Positions 37,508-57,293 of a DNA stretch of 64,000 nt are shown here, piece after piece (position 1 is the first letter of the stretch; each line of letters starts with the position of its first letter). Both the position numbers and the translations under genes were made by a program. The notes beneath the pieces were generated by a model, which ran no database searches, was not told the DNA's origin, and saw nothing but the letters and a program-made list of their open reading frames with translations. The DNA comes from an uncultured Ruminococcus sp. (lineage in GTDB: Bacteria > Bacillota > Clostridia > Oscillospirales > CAG-272): positions 246 to 64,245 of the forward strand of contig URUL01000001.1 of NCBI GenBank assembly GCA_900551005.1, in the 5' to 3' direction.

Positions 37508-37691
37508 CGTAGGTGGAAGATGTTCAAAAGAGGACCCCTTTCTCTTTTTGTCCTTTTCGGACAGGCGAAAAGCACCTCAAATGAAGGCTTCTTTTCATAT
37601 AAAGTGACAATCACATAATTTTTCGACAAAATGAACAGGAAAAAAGACAAAACTTTTTCCCTGTTTTTTTTATTTTTTTGATGAAAAGCTA

Positions 37692-37720
37692 TTGTAATTT
37701 TTGAAAAGTTCGGATATAAT
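37692..37720 (+). promoter_or_regulatory. Candidate P_mra promoter
   Basis: TTGTAA (37692-37697), a 17-nt spacer, then TATAAT (37715-37720), immediately upstream of the repeat operator. Confidence 0.45.
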
Positions 37721-37727
37721 ATAATAA

Positions 37728-37786
37728 AAGTGGTGTAAGGTGGAGTGAAGTGGTGAATTTTCCACAGAGTTTTCCACTTTTCCACA
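37728..37786 (+). promoter_or_regulatory. mraZ operator region: three direct GTGG repeats at 10-bp spacing followed by three TTTTCCAC(A/T) boxes
   Basis: GTGG occurs at 37730, 37740 and 37750 (AAGTGGTG / AGGTGGAG / AAGTGGTG). This is followed by TTTTCCACA (37758-37766), TTTTCCACT (37770-37778) and TTTTCCACA (37778-37786). It lies ~50-110 nt upstream of the mraZ start. Confidence 0.6.
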
Positions 37787-37838
37787 GGCGAGTGTTTTTT
37801 CACAGGCACAAAATAAAACAAGAAGGAGGCGTTTTTTC

Positions 37839-38258
37839 GTGTTTCTGGGTGAGTATGCACATACCGTCGATGCCAAGGGCAGGATCTTCATCCCCGCAAA
37901 GTACCGTGAAGAGCTCGGTACAAAATTTGTTATAACAAAAGGAACGGATAAATGCCTTTCCGTTTATCCTATGGAATACTGGAATTCCTATGTAGCCAAA
38001 ATAGAAGCGCTTCCTACGGCTCAGGCGGCGAAAATACGCAGATTCGTTTTCGCTCAGGCTTGTGATGTGGAGCAGGACTCTCAGGGGCGTGCGCTTCTCT
38101 CTCAGAGCCTGCGCGATTATGCGGGAATAAGCGACAGTGCCGTTGTCATAGGACTGGGCTCCTATCTCGAAATATGGTCTGCCGAAAACTGGAGCGCGGC
38201 TTCCACGGGCGAAGATGCCAAGGAAGTTGAAGAGCTCATGATAGAGCTGGGCTTCTGA
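37839..38258 (+). CDS. mraZ: Transcriptional regulator MraZ
   Basis: MFLGEYAHTVDAKGRIFIPAKYREEL, and a second SpoVT/AbrB-like repeat with DSQGRALLSQSLRDYA. GTG start after AGAAGGAGG. Confidence 0.95.
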   Translation: MFLGEYAHTVDAKGRIFIPAKYREELGTKFVITKGTDKCLSVYPMEYWNSYVAKIEALPTAQAAKIRRFVFAQACDVEQDSQGRALLSQSLRDYAGISDSAVVIGLGSYLEIWSAENWSAASTGEDAKEVEELMIELGF

Positions 38259-50752: not shown

Positions 50753-51301
50753 ATGAGCATTTCCTCGTTTCTTTCATCCAAACTTGAAATGGATATCAGA
50801 AAGCTTGCCGCCGGAGATATAAATGCATTACATGATATATATGAGCAAACAAAAGATTCCGTTTTCATTTTTTCTCTGCGCAAGCTCAGAAACCGCTCGA
50901 GCGCAGAGGATGCCATGCAGGAGACTTATCTGCGCATAGCAAAATGCGCACCTGCATACCGTCCGGGAACGAACGCCCGCGCATGGATATTCGGAATCTG
51001 CAGAAATATATGCCGCGACATGCTGAAAGTTCCTCTTTGCAGTGATATAGATGAGCTTGAAGCAGAGCCGGGAGAAGCGGATTTCTCCGATATGCTGATT
51101 GAGAACGAAGATATAAAGCGCGCATTTTCAAGATTGGAAAAAGATGAATTTGAAATAGTCATGCTGCATATATACAGCGACATGAAGCTGACCGATATAT
51201 CGGAATTTATCGGCATGAAGTATAACAGCGTGCGTTCAAAATACAGATATGCCACAAAGAAGCTGAAAGCCGAACTCGGCAAATCATATATGAGGAGGTG
51301 A
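50753..51301 (+). CDS. ECF-type RNA polymerase sigma factor
   Basis: Region 2 (AEDAMQETYLRIAKCAPAY...ARAWIFGICRNICRD) and region 4 (EFEIVMLHIYSDMKLTDISEFIGMKYNSVRSKYRYATKKLK). The ATG at 50753 follows AGAAAGGAG. The ORF-track start at 50564 adds 63 implausible residues. Confidence 0.85.
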   Translation: MSISSFLSSKLEMDIRKLAAGDINALHDIYEQTKDSVFIFSLRKLRNRSSAEDAMQETYLRIAKCAPAYRPGTNARAWIFGICRNICRDMLKVPLCSDIDELEAEPGEADFSDMLIENEDIKRAFSRLEKDEFEIVMLHIYSDMKLTDISEFIGMKYNSVRSKYRYATKKLKAELGKSYMRR

Positions 51302-52491
51302 AGAATATGAATAAATTTGAGAAATTTCTGAAAAGTGCCATTGATAAGAAGGCTCCTGAAAATTGGGGGAAAATAGAAGCCGCCGCAAAAGAAAACATGC
51401 CTCGGCAGGAAAGGAAAAAGAAAAATTTCAAATTTGTATATTCTCCCGCTTCACTCGTGATATGTGCCGTCATCGTCGTAGCCGCGATAGCGCTCGTGCC
51501 GCAGATAGACAGGATCTTCCATCCCGTATCGGTATCGACAACAACGGCATCTGTCACGGTCAACTCTTCTTCTGACTTGAGCGGCGATACAGAAAGTATA
51601 TCGTCCGTCTCCGATCCGATAAGCACGACCGCGACGACGACGGCGACAACGACGATGACGACGACGGCGGCAACGACGATGACGACGACGGCGGCAACGA
51701 CGATGACGACGACGGCGGCAACGAAATCAAGCACCCCTGCCATGACCAACATCGAAACTACATCTGATATAGAAACCGCAGTTACTTCAACAAAGGCGCC
51801 AGAATACATCTATGAGATACGCTATTCCGACTTTGAAAATGTATACGGAAGCTATACCGTTAAATACAAATTCTATACGAACGATTCTGTAAAAGGAAAA
51901 ATGGAAATAGTCGGCATCACCGTCAATTCCGGCTCGGAATTCTTGCTCGAATGTGCTTTTATTCTCGAGGGTGAGAGCGTCAGCCTGCCCGCGGAAATCT
52001 TCATCGAAAACAAAACCGGCGCGCCTCTGAAAAAACTCATTTTCGCCGAGGGAATAAAATCGGTTTTCGCCGAGGTAAGCGATGGCGCGGAAAGTATATA
52101 TATCCCCGCCTCGCTTGAAAATATCAATCCCTCGCATAAGTCGTCGGGAACATCTGTATTCTTTGCCGACAATCTCACGCGCATCGATGTGAGCGGCGAA
52201 AGCAACACCTACGCAAGTGAAAACGGCGTGCTCTTCTCAAAAGATAAACTCTCGCTTATCCGTTTCCCTGCCGCCCATGCGGAAAAGAACTATAGGATAC
52301 CCACAGGCACGGAAGATGTGGCAACATATGCTTTCCTCGGCGCCGATCTTGAATCCCTCACCGTACCCGAGAGCGTCTCCTATTTGTATCTCGAAAATCT
52401 GCGTATAAACAAGCTCTGTCTCCCTGCGACATATGTAAAAATCAGCTGGGGAGAAAATTCGGACGTGGAAGAGATCATAGCGGAAGAATAA
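51298..52491 (+). CDS. Membrane-anchored anti-sigma-like protein with a Thr-rich repeat linker and an extracellular BspA-type leucine-rich-repeat domain
   Basis: It overlaps the sigma-factor stop (GTGA). It has a short cytoplasmic N-terminus, one TM (LVICAVIVVAAIALV), a Thr/Ala/Met repeat linker and a C-terminal LRR_5-like pattern (IYIPASLENI...FADNLTRIDVSGESNTYASENGVLFSKDKLSLIRFP...IPTGTEDVATYAFLGADLESLTVPESVSYL). Confidence 0.75.
   Translation: MKNMNKFEKFLKSAIDKKAPENWGKIEAAAKENMPRQERKKKNFKFVYSPASLVICAVIVVAAIALVPQIDRIFHPVSVSTTTASVTVNSSSDLSGDTESISSVSDPISTTATTTATTTMTTTAATTMTTTAATTMTTTAATKSSTPAMTNIETTSDIETAVTSTKAPEYIYEIRYSDFENVYGSYTVKYKFYTNDSVKGKMEIVGITVNSGSEFLLECAFILEGESVSLPAEIFIENKTGAPLKKLIFAEGIKSVFAEVSDGAESIYIPASLENINPSHKSSGTSVFFADNLTRIDVSGESNTYASENGVLFSKDKLSLIRFPAAHAEKNYRIPTGTEDVATYAFLGADLESLTVPESVSYLYLENLRINKLCLPATYVKISWGENSDVEEIIAEE
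51649..51720 (+). repeat. Perfect 3 x 24-nt tandem repeat inside the anti-sigma-like gene
   Basis: ACGACGATGACGACGACGGCGGCA occurs at 51649-51672, 51673-51696 and 51697-51720, encoding (TTMTTTAA)x3. It is flanked by degenerate copies. Confidence 0.95.
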
Positions 52492-53398: not shown

Positions 53399-54382
53399 CT
53401 ATCTCTCTCCCCTTGCCAGCTTCTGGCTTCTGATATCCTTTCCCGAGAAAAGTATCAGTTCAAATTCTCCGAAGATGCGCGAGGTTATGCGGTCGGCATA
53501 GCGTGAGAAAAGCTCTTCCTTTTTGATATTTGTGCTGATTATCATGCTCTTCTCGCCTATCAGGCGGGCATTGAGCAGATTATAGAGCGTAGCCACGGTG
53601 AACTGATTGGAAACCTCTGTGCCGAGGTCGTCTATTATCAAAAGCTCGCAGTCAAAGTAGCGTGCTGTTCTCGATTCTCCGTCCTGCGCCTGATATCCTC
53701 TGCCAAACCGCTCGTATTCAAAATCATTGAATATATTGCTCGCCGTCTCATAAACGACATCATAGCCGCGGTCGATCACCGTCTTTGCTATGGCGCTGGA
53801 AAGATGAGTCTTGCCTAAACCTGTAGTCCCCATGAAAAGCAGATTGCGCGTCTTTTCATCGCCGAAGCTCACGGCAAAATTCTTTGCCGTAGCAAGCGCG
53901 TGCTCCATATTTTTCCGTTCTGCCCCGCTGTAGTAGCTCAGGTCAAAATTTTCAAAGCTCTGCTTCGAGATAAGATTGCCTATGCCCGAGCTTTCATATC
54001 CGGCAAGAACGAGCGCACGTCTCATGCATTTGCACATGACTCCGTTTATCATGCCCGTATCCATGCACTCCGGGCAATCATAGTGAACATCGCTGTAGTC
54101 CTCCGGCACACCCTTTGACAGAAGAATGTCACGGCGAGCGCAAAGAAGCTCTTCATTATCCTTATTCAGTGCATTGATGCGTTCCGCCAGCGTTGCGGGA
54201 TCGCCTTTTGCCGCCTGCATTAACTTCAGCCCGGTCATCGCGAGTTCATTATCGATGCTTGCTATCTCGGGAAAACGCGCATGGAGCACCTTTTTTCTGC
54301 GCTCCGCATCCTCCTTGGCACGCAGATTTTTTGTCATATACTCCTCGGAAATCCGCTTGAAATTCGCTTTATTGTAGCTCAT
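53399..54382 (-). CDS. dnaI: DnaI/DnaC-like helicase loader (IstB-type AAA+ ATPase)
   Basis: It has an N-terminal Cys-rich module (DCPECMDTGMINGVMCKCM), Walker A GTTGLGKTHL and Walker B LLIIDDLG. It is paired with the DnaD-domain gene upstream. Confidence 0.8.
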   Translation of the reverse strand: MSYNKANFKRISEEYMTKNLRAKEDAERRKKVLHARFPEIASIDNELAMTGLKLMQAAKGDPATLAERINALNKDNEELLCARRDILLSKGVPEDYSDVHYDCPECMDTGMINGVMCKCMRRALVLAGYESSGIGNLISKQSFENFDLSYYSGAERKNMEHALATAKNFAVSFGDEKTRNLLFMGTTGLGKTHLSSAIAKTVIDRGYDVVYETASNIFNDFEYERFGRGYQAQDGESRTARYFDCELLIIDDLGTEVSNQFTVATLYNLLNARLIGEKSMIISTNIKKEELFSRYADRITSRIFGEFELILFSGKDIRSQKLARGER

Positions 54383-54385
54383 GTC

Positions 54386-55360
54386 TTACTTTCCTCCTGC
54401 ACCGCGCGAAGCGGCAAGATTGAAAAATTCGTCCAAATCAAAACCTGCGCCGCTCCCGGCTGCGGGCTTTTTCTTATCGGTCTTTTCATATTCGGCGACA
54501 GCCTCGGGGGTACTCAGGCCCGCCGCATGCCAATCCGTTAGAAGCTTATTTTCATAAGAAAATGACGGGCGCGTGACCTTCGGGCTTTTCATCATCTTTT
54601 CATAGCCGTATTCTATCAGCTCAAATGACATGCCCATCTTTACCCAGTTTTCCAGACATTCCTTCTCGGTCTTTATGAGAGCGCGCTCGCCTATCCCGAA
54701 AAGGGTTCGGATCTTATATTCCAAAGAGCGCTTCTCGTCCTCCCGCTTGATATATTCCTCCAGTGACGCAACGGTATTTATGCCCTTGTCATAGAGCCCT
54801 ATCGCTGTCTGCTCTATATATCGAAGAGAGCCTTTGCCTATCTTCACGCAATATGAGATGAGAAGCAGAATGTATTCGTTATCAAGACGCAGATGATCGG
54901 AGAGATAAACGATGATCTTTGTTTCGGACGGTGTCAGACTTCCCTTTCCGAGGAGTGTCTGCGCCATCTCCGCCGTCTCCCTCAGTCTGCCGTTTTCGGC
55001 AAATATGCGTTCAACATCATTTCCGGTATAGGCCTGCGCAGACGGCTCATCGGGCTGTTCGCTCTTTTTGCTTTTACGCACCTGACGGTTGCGGGTAGTT
55101 GCTACAGTTTTCGTCTCATCATCACCTATTTCGATAATGCCCGTACCGCGCCAAAAGGAGATAGCAGCCTCCACATCGCCCTCGGGAATGCCCAGCGTAT
55201 CCGAAATCTCCTCGGACGAGCCGCAGACACCGCTCGCGGCGGCAATGAGGACACGAAGCTCGTCGCCCGATGCTTTTTCGATATGATTTGCCGTTTCTCC
55301 CGGCAGATTTATGACAGAACTGCCGAATAAAAGCTTGAGTTTCAAGTTCGTTCCCTCCAT
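54386..55360 (-). CDS. DnaD/DnaB-domain replication initiation and membrane attachment protein
   Basis: 324 aa. The C-terminal half matches the DnaB_2/DnaD repeat (LSPSETKIIVYLSDHLRLDNEYILLLISYC...SLRYIEQTAIGLYDKGI ... ENWVKMGMSFELIEYGYEKM...SFSYENKLLTDWHAAGL). Confidence 0.75.
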   Translation of the reverse strand: MEGTNLKLKLLFGSSVINLPGETANHIEKASGDELRVLIAAASGVCGSSEEISDTLGIPEGDVEAAISFWRGTGIIEIGDDETKTVATTRNRQVRKSKKSEQPDEPSAQAYTGNDVERIFAENGRLRETAEMAQTLLGKGSLTPSETKIIVYLSDHLRLDNEYILLLISYCVKIGKGSLRYIEQTAIGLYDKGINTVASLEEYIKREDEKRSLEYKIRTLFGIGERALIKTEKECLENWVKMGMSFELIEYGYEKMMKSPKVTRPSFSYENKLLTDWHAAGLSTPEAVAEYEKTDKKKPAAGSGAGFDLDEFFNLAASRGAGGK

Positions 55361-55458
55361 GATACGCTTTGTTTATTAGAATAAAATTAAAATTCTGAAA
55401 TGGCGAATAAAAATTCCCGTGTCCGGAGAAAATAATGAGTTAAAGATCGGAAAATGAG

Positions 55459-55611
55459 TTTTCCACAGGGCTTTTCAGGAAAAAATCCCCGCACTTCTCC
55501 ACACAGTCCACAGGTTTTTCCACAGCATTTCGGAAAAAAATGGCTACAGAAGCTGATTTTGCCGTTTTTCGCCTAAACTTATTAACAGAACAATCCACAG
55601 ACTGTGGAAAA
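55459..55611. promoter_or_regulatory. DnaA-box-like cluster upstream of the dnaD-like gene
   Basis: The boxes are TTTTCCACA at 55459-55467, TTCTCCACA at 55495-55503, CAGTCCACA at 55504-55512 (weak), TTTTCCACA at 55516-55524, CAATCCACA at 55591-55599 and an inverted TGTGGAAAA at 55603-55611. The last two form the palindrome TCCACAGACTGTGGA. The consensus DnaA box is TTATCCACA. An AT-rich tract follows at ~55621-55740. Confidence 0.6.
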
Positions 55612-55768
55612 CTTTTTCGCGTTAAAAAAGCTGTTTTTTGGAATTTTATACTTCTGTATTAAATAAAAATCAGCACAAATCGGTATATAAAAATTCTATA
55701 TTTTGCCGATTTTTATTTTTATTTTCAAAAACTATTGACAAATTCGGAAGTCTCGCACCCTTATCGGT

Positions 55769-56776
55769 TCATATGGTAAAAAATGCGCTTGCATTGAGCG
55801 AAGTATCGGCGAAATTCCCGGCAATAGCTTCAAAATATCCCGCGGCCGCGATCATCGCCGCATTGTCTCCGCAGTATTTTATCTCGGGATAATGGAAAGC
55901 GATCTTTCGTTTCTCGCAAAGGTTTGAGAGCGCTGTACGCAAATGAGAGTTGGCAGCCACGCCACCGGCAAGAGCAAGAGTCTTAAGCTCAGGATGGCGC
56001 TCCAGCGCCGCATCGAGCTTGACGACGGCAGAGTTTACCGCCGCCGTAACGAAGCTCGCCGCCACATCCTCACGGCATATTTTCTCGCCTTTCTGAGATG
56101 CGGAATTGAGATGATTCAGCACGGCGGTCTTGATACCGGAGAAGGAAAAATCGAGCGTTTCATCATGGATCGCGGCGCTCGGCAGCTTCAGCGTGGGCTT
56201 TCCCTCATAGGCGAGCTTATCGATAGCCGCACCGCCGGGATAAGGCATGCCGAGTACACGCGCCACCTTGTCGAAGCATTCGCCCATGGCATCGTCGCGG
56301 GTGCCGCCGATCTCTTCTATATGATTATAGTCATGCACGATCGCTATCGAGGTATGACCGCCCGAAGCCACAAAGGCAAGATATGGCGGCTTCAGCGCAG
56401 GTGGACAAAGATAATTTGCCGCGATATGCCCTTTTATATGATTTACGGCAACGAGCGGCTTGTCATTTGCATAAGCAAGCGATTTTGCAAAATTCACGCC
56501 AACAAGAAGCGCCCCTATGAGTCCCGGGCTTGCCGTAACGGCAATCACATCTATATCACGAATCGAAGCTCCCGCCGCTTCAAGAGCATCATATGTTATT
56601 TTTGATACGGCTTCGCAATGCGCACGGCTCGCGATCTCGGGTACAACGCCTCCGAAGCGCGCATGCACCTCTATCTGCGAAGCCACGATATTGGAAAGGA
56701 TATCAAATCCGTCGCCACACGAGAGGACAGCAACAGCCGTCTCGTCGCATGAGCTTTCTATTCCGAGTATTTTCAC
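55769..56776 (-). CDS. tsaD: tRNA N6-adenosine threonylcarbamoyltransferase TsaD
   Basis: (V)KILGIESSCDETAVAV..., HCEAV, GGHT, and the C-terminal CGDNAAMIA. Start set at the GTG at 56776 after AAAGGA. The upstream ATG codons add residues not present in the family. Confidence 0.92.
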   Translation of the reverse strand: MKILGIESSCDETAVAVLSCGDGFDILSNIVASQIEVHARFGGVVPEIASRAHCEAVSKITYDALEAAGASIRDIDVIAVTASPGLIGALLVGVNFAKSLAYANDKPLVAVNHIKGHIAANYLCPPALKPPYLAFVASGGHTSIAIVHDYNHIEEIGGTRDDAMGECFDKVARVLGMPYPGGAAIDKLAYEGKPTLKLPSAAIHDETLDFSFSGIKTAVLNHLNSASQKGEKICREDVAASFVTAAVNSAVVKLDAALERHPELKTLALAGGVAANSHLRTALSNLCEKRKIAFHYPEIKYCGDNAAMIAAAGYFEAIAGNFADTSLNASAFFTI

Positions 56777-56834
56777 AAAAATGTCCTTTCTGAAAGGATT
56801 TTCAGTTTTATACGAAAGTATAAATTTGCCTTTT

Positions 56835-57293
56835 TCACTTTTCCGCAGAGAGATCCGTCGCATAGATCTCCGCATCCTCGCGCGGGAATTTATAGAAATC
56901 TCGCCGCGCGCCTATCTTAAGAAATCCGTGCTTTTCATACAGCTTTTTCGCCGCCGCATTTGATGCACGAACCTCGAGAGTGACGCTTCTTATCCCATTT
57001 TTCCCGGCCAGGCCGAGAAGCGCGGTAAGAAGCATACTGCCGATCTTTTCGCGGCGGTATGCCTCATCCACAGCTATATTGCAAATATCCATTTCGTCAA
57101 GCACGAAAAATGCGTCGGCATATCCCACGCATTTTTCACCGTCAAAGGCGCAGAGGATAATGAAATCCTCACGCGATGCGGCATCGAGTACGGCGTATTT
57201 GCTCCATGCATTTGTACCGAAGCACTGAGCCTCTATCTCGGCAATGCGCTCGGCAAGCTCCGCAGAAAATGGGCGGATATCAATTTTTCTCAC
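56835..57293 (-). CDS. rimI: Ribosomal-protein-alanine N-acetyltransferase RimI (GNAT)
   Basis: 152 aa with the GNAT motif A ([17 protein letters not shown]) and ...[20 protein letters not shown]. It is adjacent to tsaD. Confidence 0.85.

Follow-up and report, generated by a model that had tools for sequence, protein, structure and literature searches.

The gap between tsaD and a predicted helicase-loader operon contains an ordered array of DnaA-box-like sequences at positions 55459–55611 of the window (the whole stretch of DNA that was analyzed, 64,000 nt). We consider this array to be a predicted DnaA-binding platform and the putative transcription-control region of the dnaD/dnaB-like plus dnaI-like operon, with a probability of roughly 60%. 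A regulatory role is supported by motif identity, enrichment, conserved layout, and gene context; from these features we infer that DnaA would occupy the boxes, that separate groups of boxes would be bridged, and that transcription of the operon would be affected. The genes and intergenic features of the region are as follows:

56835–57293, minus strand: rimI, a GNAT/RimI-type acetyltransferase gene that precedes tsaD
55769–56875, minus strand: tsaD, t6A synthase gene (Pfam TsaD, E=1.5e-89)
55346–55768: intergenic gap between tsaD and the dnaD-like gene, 423 nt
55621–55740, no strand assigned: AT-rich tract just downstream of the tsaD stop, 20.8% GC, containing weak promoter-like matches
54386–55345, minus strand: DnaD/DnaB-like initiation or helicase co-loader gene (Pfam DnaB_2, E=4.3e-28, two stretches; TIGR01446)
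53399–54382, minus strand: DnaC/DnaI-like AAA+ helicase loader gene (Pfam IstB_IS21 and Bac_DnaA ATPase; NF005304)

The minus-strand order is rimI, tsaD, the 423-nt gap, the DnaB_2 gene, and the DnaC/DnaI-like loader gene. Since all of these genes read from the minus strand, a transcript passes the tsaD stop, the AT-rich tract, the boxes, and the dnaD-like start in this order. The loader protein scores 308.9 bits against NCBIfam NF005304, which exceeds the family cut-off. The dnaD-like product is a 319-aa protein with two DnaB_2 stretches, from a family that also includes C. difficile CD3653 (PMC5204125); a PDB sequence search with this protein as query gave no match. Its gene probably starts at TTG 55345 and not at ATG 55360, the start of the longest ORF, because this ATG is ACG in close relatives while the arrangement GGAGG-N8-TTG, with the Shine–Dalgarno sequence GGAGG at 55358–55354 (minus strand) ahead of TTG 55345, is kept. 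With the start at 55345, the boxes sit 114–266 nt upstream of it. The first-pass annotation had placed six boxes within about 155 nt upstream of the dnaD-like gene; the boxes themselves span 153 nt. The tsaD ORF as listed encodes 368 aa, is about 33 aa longer at the N-terminus than its homologues, and overlaps the end of rimI; tblastn matches of this ORF in the relatives' loci begin at ORF residue 17–34. As the homologues measure 335–337 aa, the true tsaD start is probably a GTG near 56776 (VKILGIESS...).

Sequence scans of the gap returned the following boxes, which fall into three modules:

55459–55467, plus strand: box TTTTCCACA
55495–55503, plus strand: box TTCTCCACA
55504–55512: weaker box CAGTCCACA
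55516–55524, plus strand: box TTTTCCACA
55530–55538, minus strand: seventh, very weak box-like 9-mer TTTTTCCGA, recognized only via comparison with relatives
55591–55599: weaker box CAATCCACA
55603–55611, minus strand: box TTTTCCACA
55591–55611: module A, convergent box pair, minus-strand reading TTTTCCACA-gtc-TGTGGATTG
55495–55524, minus strand: module B, three tandem boxes, minus-strand reading TGTGGAAAA-acc-TGTGGACTG-TGTGGAGAA
55459–55467, minus strand: module C, single box TGTGGAAAA

All six 9-mers described in the first-pass annotation are present at 55459–55611, and the palindrome it saw in the last box pair is an inverted repeat with perfect 7-nt arms, TCCACAG-A-CTGTGGA (55594–55608). 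The first box lies 158 nt further on from the tsaD stop at 55769. Four boxes with at most one mismatch and two or three weaker ones are found within 153 nt; the perfect sequence TTATCCACA is absent among the window's own boxes, two of which carry two or three mismatches. The weak 9-mer at 55530–55538 converges on the first box of module B. In composition, the array corresponds to a non-oriC DnaA-box cluster, with several closely spaced, intergenic TTATNCACA/TTWTNCACA 9-mers at no more than one mismatch. The gap also holds two copies of a non-box motif, AAAAWCGGYAAAAT on the gene strand, at 55700–55713 (ATTTTGCCGATTTT, plus strand) and 55556–55569 (ATTTTGCCGTTTTT, plus strand), one located upstream of module A and the other within the spacer between modules A and B. 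The copy at plus-strand 55700–55713, inside the AT-rich tract (AAAATCGGCAAAAT on the minus strand), is kept in loci L001–L005 and L017.

The density of boxes is far above that of the surrounding DNA. Six TCCACA cores occur in the 153 nt at 55459–55611, compared with 22 on both strands of the whole 64 kb, and the Poisson probability of six TCCACA in a 160-nt stretch is 3.7e-11. The proposed non-random cluster of DnaA-type boxes ahead of the DnaB_2 and DnaC/DnaI-like genes is thus well founded (P about 4e-11), and the check for a similar box density elsewhere showed that it is not similar throughout the 64-kb window. The highest TCCACA count per 160 nt was 3 in 100 Markov-simulated 64-kb sequences, and none of 5000 simulated 423-nt sequences with the composition of the gap exceeded 3. 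Exact TTWTNCACA sequences number seven in the window, with three located in the gap and three at 37758–37804. Clusters of TT[AT]TCCACA with at most one mismatch gave the same picture, with two real ones in 64 kb, the gap array and a cluster at 37620–37804 upstream of mraZ. The second array has the following structure:

37692–37804, plus strand: second box array in the mraZ leader (sequence scans; MraZ identified by NCBIfam)
37692–37720, plus strand: near-consensus promoter TTGTAA-17-TATAAT
37730–37755, plus strand: three MraZ repeats, GTGGTG, GTGGAG, and GTGGTG
37758–37804, plus strand: four direct boxes, TTTTCCACA, TTTTCCAC, TTTTCCACA, and TTTTTCACA
37839–38258, plus strand: mraZ (NCBIfam MraZ), whose Shine–Dalgarno sequence and start follow the boxes

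The order of promoter, MraZ repeats, and DnaA-type boxes is kept in four loci (L032–L035) with an MraZ identity of 58–89%. Located downstream of the likely transcription start, the predicted boxes of the mraZ leader are in a position that is typical of a repressor or roadblock.

A position-frequency matrix was built from 64 CCAC-centered sites in 9 non-redundant gaps. Its information is restricted to TT[T>A]TCCAC[A>C], a motif of nine positions flanked by random sequence, and relatives carry the perfect TTATCCACA at a homologous box position. By length, asymmetry, and sequence, the predicted sites have the motif of the classical DnaA box TTWTNCACA. The box-reading residues of DnaA are conserved among E. 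coli, Bacillus, and Clostridia (PMC2533591; PMC7561715). It is very unlikely that the array instead represents sites of another protein, such as MraZ, ParB (parS), or an unknown regulator, or an RNA element. GTGG is also the core of MraZ-binding repeats, which consist of three GTGG[A/T]G motifs with 4-nt spacers (bioRxiv 10.1101/2022.02.09.479790), and such repeats abut the second array directly. The repeat pattern GTGGWG-N4-GTGGWG, however, is absent from the gap, where the boxes are spaced at 12 and 9 nt and conservation covers nine positions, the T/A-rich half among them. MraZ repeats do not fit the gap boxes; the pattern occurs in the window only at 37730–37755. No match to parS (16-bp palindrome TGTTNCACGTGNAACA) was found in the region at up to 3 mismatches. 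An RNA element could account for module A being hairpin-capable and flagged as terminator-like, and for the RNA fold z-score of the gap (−1.96), but 4 of 100 shuffles folded as well as the real gap, the hairpin arms show no covariation and always consist of box sequence, and relatives do not share the U-run downstream. An Rfam scan of 54800–56300 (E≤1) returned only noise. A known cis-regulatory RNA or small RNA was likewise rejected for the gap, with no Rfam match and with hairpin arms of invariant box sequence. In the spacer between modules A and B, a search for hairpins and terminators found weak stems that were inconsistent between lineages.

Relatives of the locus were gathered by a genome-collection scan, a protein search, contig look-ups, and a metagenome scan with a 12-sequence protein alignment. 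The genome-collection scan yielded the three closest relatives, with 83–87% protein identity: Candidatus Apopatosoma intestinale, an Acutalibacteraceae bin, and an “uncultured Ruminococcus” bin. The protein search produced a graded series of homologues with identities as low as 22%, and the contig look-ups and metagenome scan added further loci at 39–72% identity. Every locus with sufficient upstream DNA has the order tsaD, gap (203–427 nt), DnaB_2 gene, and IstB-like loader gene. Box layout and gene order persist across about 20 loci, with DnaD-like identities of 39–87%, while the gaps are otherwise unalignable. The shared layout consists of a convergent pair, a tandem triple 87–88 nt further on, and then one further box or pair; the number, orientation, and spacing of boxes are all kept, so that the cluster is indeed conserved at the tsaD–dnaD junctions of relatives, where its conservation had been raised as a question. 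In all loci compared, it lies directly upstream of the helicase-loader operon and is co-oriented with it. TCCACA occurs at 12.4 per kb in the relatives' gaps, as opposed to 0.26 per kb across the other 104 kb of these loci.

Each of the modules has its own conserved form. Module A is found as TTTTCCACA-N3-[TG]GTGGAwwn in 16 loci, and its columns are invariant in alignment A4. Module B occurs as [TG]GTGGAAAA-N3-TGTKGnnnn-TGTGGAKAA in 20 of the 24 tabulated sequences (the window and 23 loci), and seven loci (L006, L016, L017, L020, L022, L024, and L021) have the perfect consensus TGTGGATAA as its last box. Module C is a single box in relatives or, in several of them, a convergent pair TTTTCCACA-N7/8-TGTGGAAAA. 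The weak 9-mer of 55530–55538 is a proper TTTTTCACA in some relatives (L006, L007, L013, and L014), and its T-run is invariant in alignment A4. In a nine-lineage alignment, nearly all invariant columns are boxes, and the remainder consists of the T-run of the degenerate box and a few A's in the middle of the spacer. Measured start to start, modules A and B lie 87–88 nt apart in 16 of 17 sequences (the window and 15 of 16 loci) and 99 nt apart in L017. Correspondingly, the A–B spacer (55525–55590 in the window) measures 66–67 nt in nearly all lineages and 78 nt in L017. Its sequence is not conserved; only a mid-spacer A-tract and the T-run are kept in the equivalents of L004–L024. A constant length without sequence conservation suggests a phasing or looping constraint. 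For a predicted non-oriC DnaA-box cluster, the layout of the array is unusually well defined and conserved.

The DnaA-box cluster adjoins a tract of 20.8% GC and replication genes, which could indicate that the gap is a replication origin or unwinding element (part of the chromosomal oriC or a secondary origin) that would unwind at the AT-rich tract. We regard this reading as extremely improbable. The AT-rich tract at 55621–55740, as described in the first-pass annotation, is real (20.8% GC versus 48.6% for the window), but not exceptional: it is matched by three further places in the window. In relatives, the corresponding tract has 21–39% GC and would therefore not always melt readily; the deeper relatives have no such gap. 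In Bacillus and Clostridia, oriC flanks dnaA (PMC7561715), while the DnaA domain-IV signature DH[ST]T[VI] is absent from all six frames of the 64-kb window, which places the cluster outside oriC. Within the same 64 kb, neither dnaA/dnaN nor a GC-skew switch was found; GC skew is negative on either side of the cluster, and the flanking genes on both sides have the same direction. In a basal unwinding system, a DnaA box has three or more DnaA-trios no further than 16 bp away, and an AT-rich region for unwinding comes next (PMC8287927). The search here took the published pattern of a box, a spacer of up to 16 bp, and repeated NAN trios (PMC8287927) and required runs of four or more; those within 16 bp of boxes on both strands were sporadic, and none was conserved between lineages. 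The gap resembles the oriC basal unwinding system in that a short GC-rich stretch (GTGCGGGG) comes after the tandem boxes of module B and an AT-rich tract is nearby (PMC8287927, PMC6669920). It differs in that it contains no DnaA-trio repeats, is not next to dnaA/dnaN, and has its AT-rich tract on the far side, at a distance of over 100 nt from the tandem boxes. The suggestion of an origin-like element is therefore unsupported: dnaA, a skew switch, and conserved runs of DnaA-trios are all missing from the window.

As a transcription-control region, the array could function as follows. ATP-DnaA would probably fill the three modules cooperatively, that is, the convergent pair, the tandem triple 87–88 nt away, and the further box or pair, with the better boxes (TTTTCCACA, and TTATCCACA in relatives) anchoring their weaker neighbors. 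The modules may then be bridged into one nucleoprotein complex, as the fixed spacer of 66–67 nt suggests. Such a complex would modulate RNA polymerase entering the operon, either by read-through from tsaD or from a weak gene-proximal promoter. Read-through may feed the operon because there is no convincing terminator between the two and the ancestral state is a single operon. A scan for promoters and terminators gave two weak promoter matches, among them TTGAAA-17-CAAAAT at 55728–55700, and, as the sole “terminator”, the box palindrome. Closest to the gene lies a weak candidate:

55375–55380, minus strand: TCTAAT, putative −10 hexamer of a gene-proximal promoter

Seven of nine lineages have a hexamer of the form nCTAAT or CATAAT 24–36 nt ahead of the start codon, with no good −35 element, and sigma-70 scoring of 15 gaps revealed no promoter at a conserved position; the boxes may thus be situated upstream of a promoter, overlap with one, or form part of a leader. 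Repression at high levels of active DnaA would be the likelier direction of control, by analogy with B. subtilis dnaB, and activation would also be possible. The outcome would be a negative feedback between initiator activity and helicase-loader supply. The same factor might act on the leader of the mraZ/dcw operon, thereby tying cell division to replication status.

Given that several DnaA molecules (six or more) would bind, the array may also act as a DnaA sink, and regulatory and titration roles are not mutually exclusive. A further reading holds that the cluster mainly titrates or buffers DnaA, or organizes the origin-proximal chromosome, to time initiation with little or no effect on transcription, resembling the six clusters of B. 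subtilis or E. coli datA. It accords with the multiple boxes in a fixed layout and with their position immediately downstream of tsaD, which is that of the Bacillus gcp–ydiF cluster; the latter is conserved, lies between convergent 3′ ends without a known transcriptional role (PMC2533591), and has been proposed to titrate DnaA. Deletion of the clusters in B. subtilis is reported to lead to early initiation (PMC3245932), and sigma-70 scoring found no clear promoter among the gap boxes. Against these points, the helicase-loader operon invariably follows the cluster directly and in the same orientation, and the same motif array recurs at a plainly transcriptional position in the mraZ leader. We therefore judge titration as the main function to be unlikely, though it is the alternative that carries the most weight, and prefer control of the helicase-loader operon.

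This preferred function has precedents in B. subtilis. There, DnaA reportedly acts as a repressor of dnaB and yllB(ftsL), whose promoter regions it binds (Goranov et al, 2005, via PMC2533591 and PMC8203912). The same repression is reported in PMC2533591 and PMC4447404, together with stable DnaA binding downstream of gcp (= tsaD), a cluster position that the first-pass annotation had named correctly. In both organisms, box-type sites front a co-loader/loader operon (dnaB(-dnaI) in B. subtilis) and the mraZ/dcw operon (yllB/mraZ-ftsL), and the reported DnaA binding at yllB/ftsL parallels the boxes in the window's mraZ leader. The B. subtilis dnaB and yllB sites are reported to be weak, detected only by ChIP, and outside the eight stable clusters, whereas the array in the window is dense, ordered, and deeply conserved. 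Binding and repression are reported for B. subtilis, while the window offers predicted sites. The position of a dnaB-type site and the position downstream of gcp coincide in the window in one and the same gap. The B. subtilis dnaB-dnaI operon follows nrdR, and the window's operon follows tsaD.

The pair of a DnaB_2 protein and a loader is the presumed chromosomal helicase-loading module of Clostridia, as represented by C. difficile CD3653–CD3654 (PMC5204125). The window encodes the same pair, a DnaD-like protein with two DnaB_2 stretches and an AAA+ loader; in C. difficile, by contrast, the neighborhood includes the replicative helicase gene, and no DnaA-box cluster is reported there in the cited literature (PMC5204125).

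Most of the experimental mapping of the network formed by DnaA as a transcription factor and its box clusters has so far come from Bacillus, E. coli, and Caulobacter. The predicted sites described here extend this box-cluster network to an uncultured gut Clostridia lineage. Two operons that are DnaA targets in B. subtilis (dnaB-like/dnaI-like and mraZ/dcw), as well as the cluster position downstream of tsaD, recur in the window, which would imply that initiator activity, the supply of helicase loader, and cell division were linked long ago or have become linked more than once. With its convergent pairs, tandem triple, and 66–67-nt spacer, the strict layout may provide a compact natural template for cooperative DnaA assembly outside the origin. 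Current understanding is not overturned by these results. The predicted element is of a known kind, a DnaA-box cluster outside oriC or a promoter region under DnaA control.

The age of the cluster can be approached from the most distant homologues (30–33% identity; L029–L031), which have the same gene order as a tight operon and contain no gap or boxes at the junction:

L029, 1490–4401: rimI-tsaD-DnaB_2-IstB with a 9-nt junction
L030, 708–4608: rex-type gene between tsaD and the DnaB_2 gene
L031, 711–4427: rex-type gene between tsaD and the DnaB_2 gene

In the last two loci, the gene separating tsaD from the replication genes is that of a Rex-type redox-sensing regulator. Since these deeper relatives keep the gene order without gap or boxes, the box-bearing gap is, on this comparison, younger than the tsaD/dnaB-like/dnaI-like synteny and would mark one subclade. 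They also manage without the cluster, which therefore is not essential to the operon.

The gcp–ydiF cluster of B. subtilis contains 8 boxes in about 50 bp, 4 of them perfect, between convergent 3′ ends and without a promoter (PMC2533591 Table 2). Both it and the gap array contain multiple boxes, are located immediately 3′ of tsaD/gcp, and are kept among relatives (PMC2533591, PMC4447404, PMC3245932), and the combination of strong and weak boxes in the gap fits the cooperative, ATP-DnaA-preferring binding reported for gcp–ydiF. The gap array differs in that it precedes a co-directional operon, is spread over three modules in 153 nt, and contains no perfect box. Of the features expected of a gcp–ydiF orthologue, the position immediately downstream of the tsaD/gcp 3′ end is present, whereas a convergent, non-promoter position and dense packing are not seen in the gap array; boxes were also absent from the junctions of the intermediate lineages examined (L029–L031). 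Common descent of the two clusters is unsupported because lineages with the synteny but no gap lack boxes, and we lean against homology between the gap array and the Bacillus gcp cluster. It is conceivable, if improbable, that the tsaD-side cluster began as the DnaA-responsive region of a rimI-tsaD-dnaB-dnaI supra-operon and that Bacilli retained it, once dnaB-dnaI had left, purely as a complex for sensing or titrating DnaA; in this scenario, the 87–88-nt geometry would reflect a looped ATP-DnaA complex that gates loader expression and buffers the initiator.

Beyond the far end of the replication operon, plus-strand genes meet this minus-strand operon at about 53.35 kb. Just before this point lies a plus-strand ORF of 397 aa (51298–52491), which has no Pfam match; it appears to have a membrane segment at the N-terminus and contains a long repeat rich in Thr and Ala (TTATTTATTTMTTTAATTMTTTAAT...).
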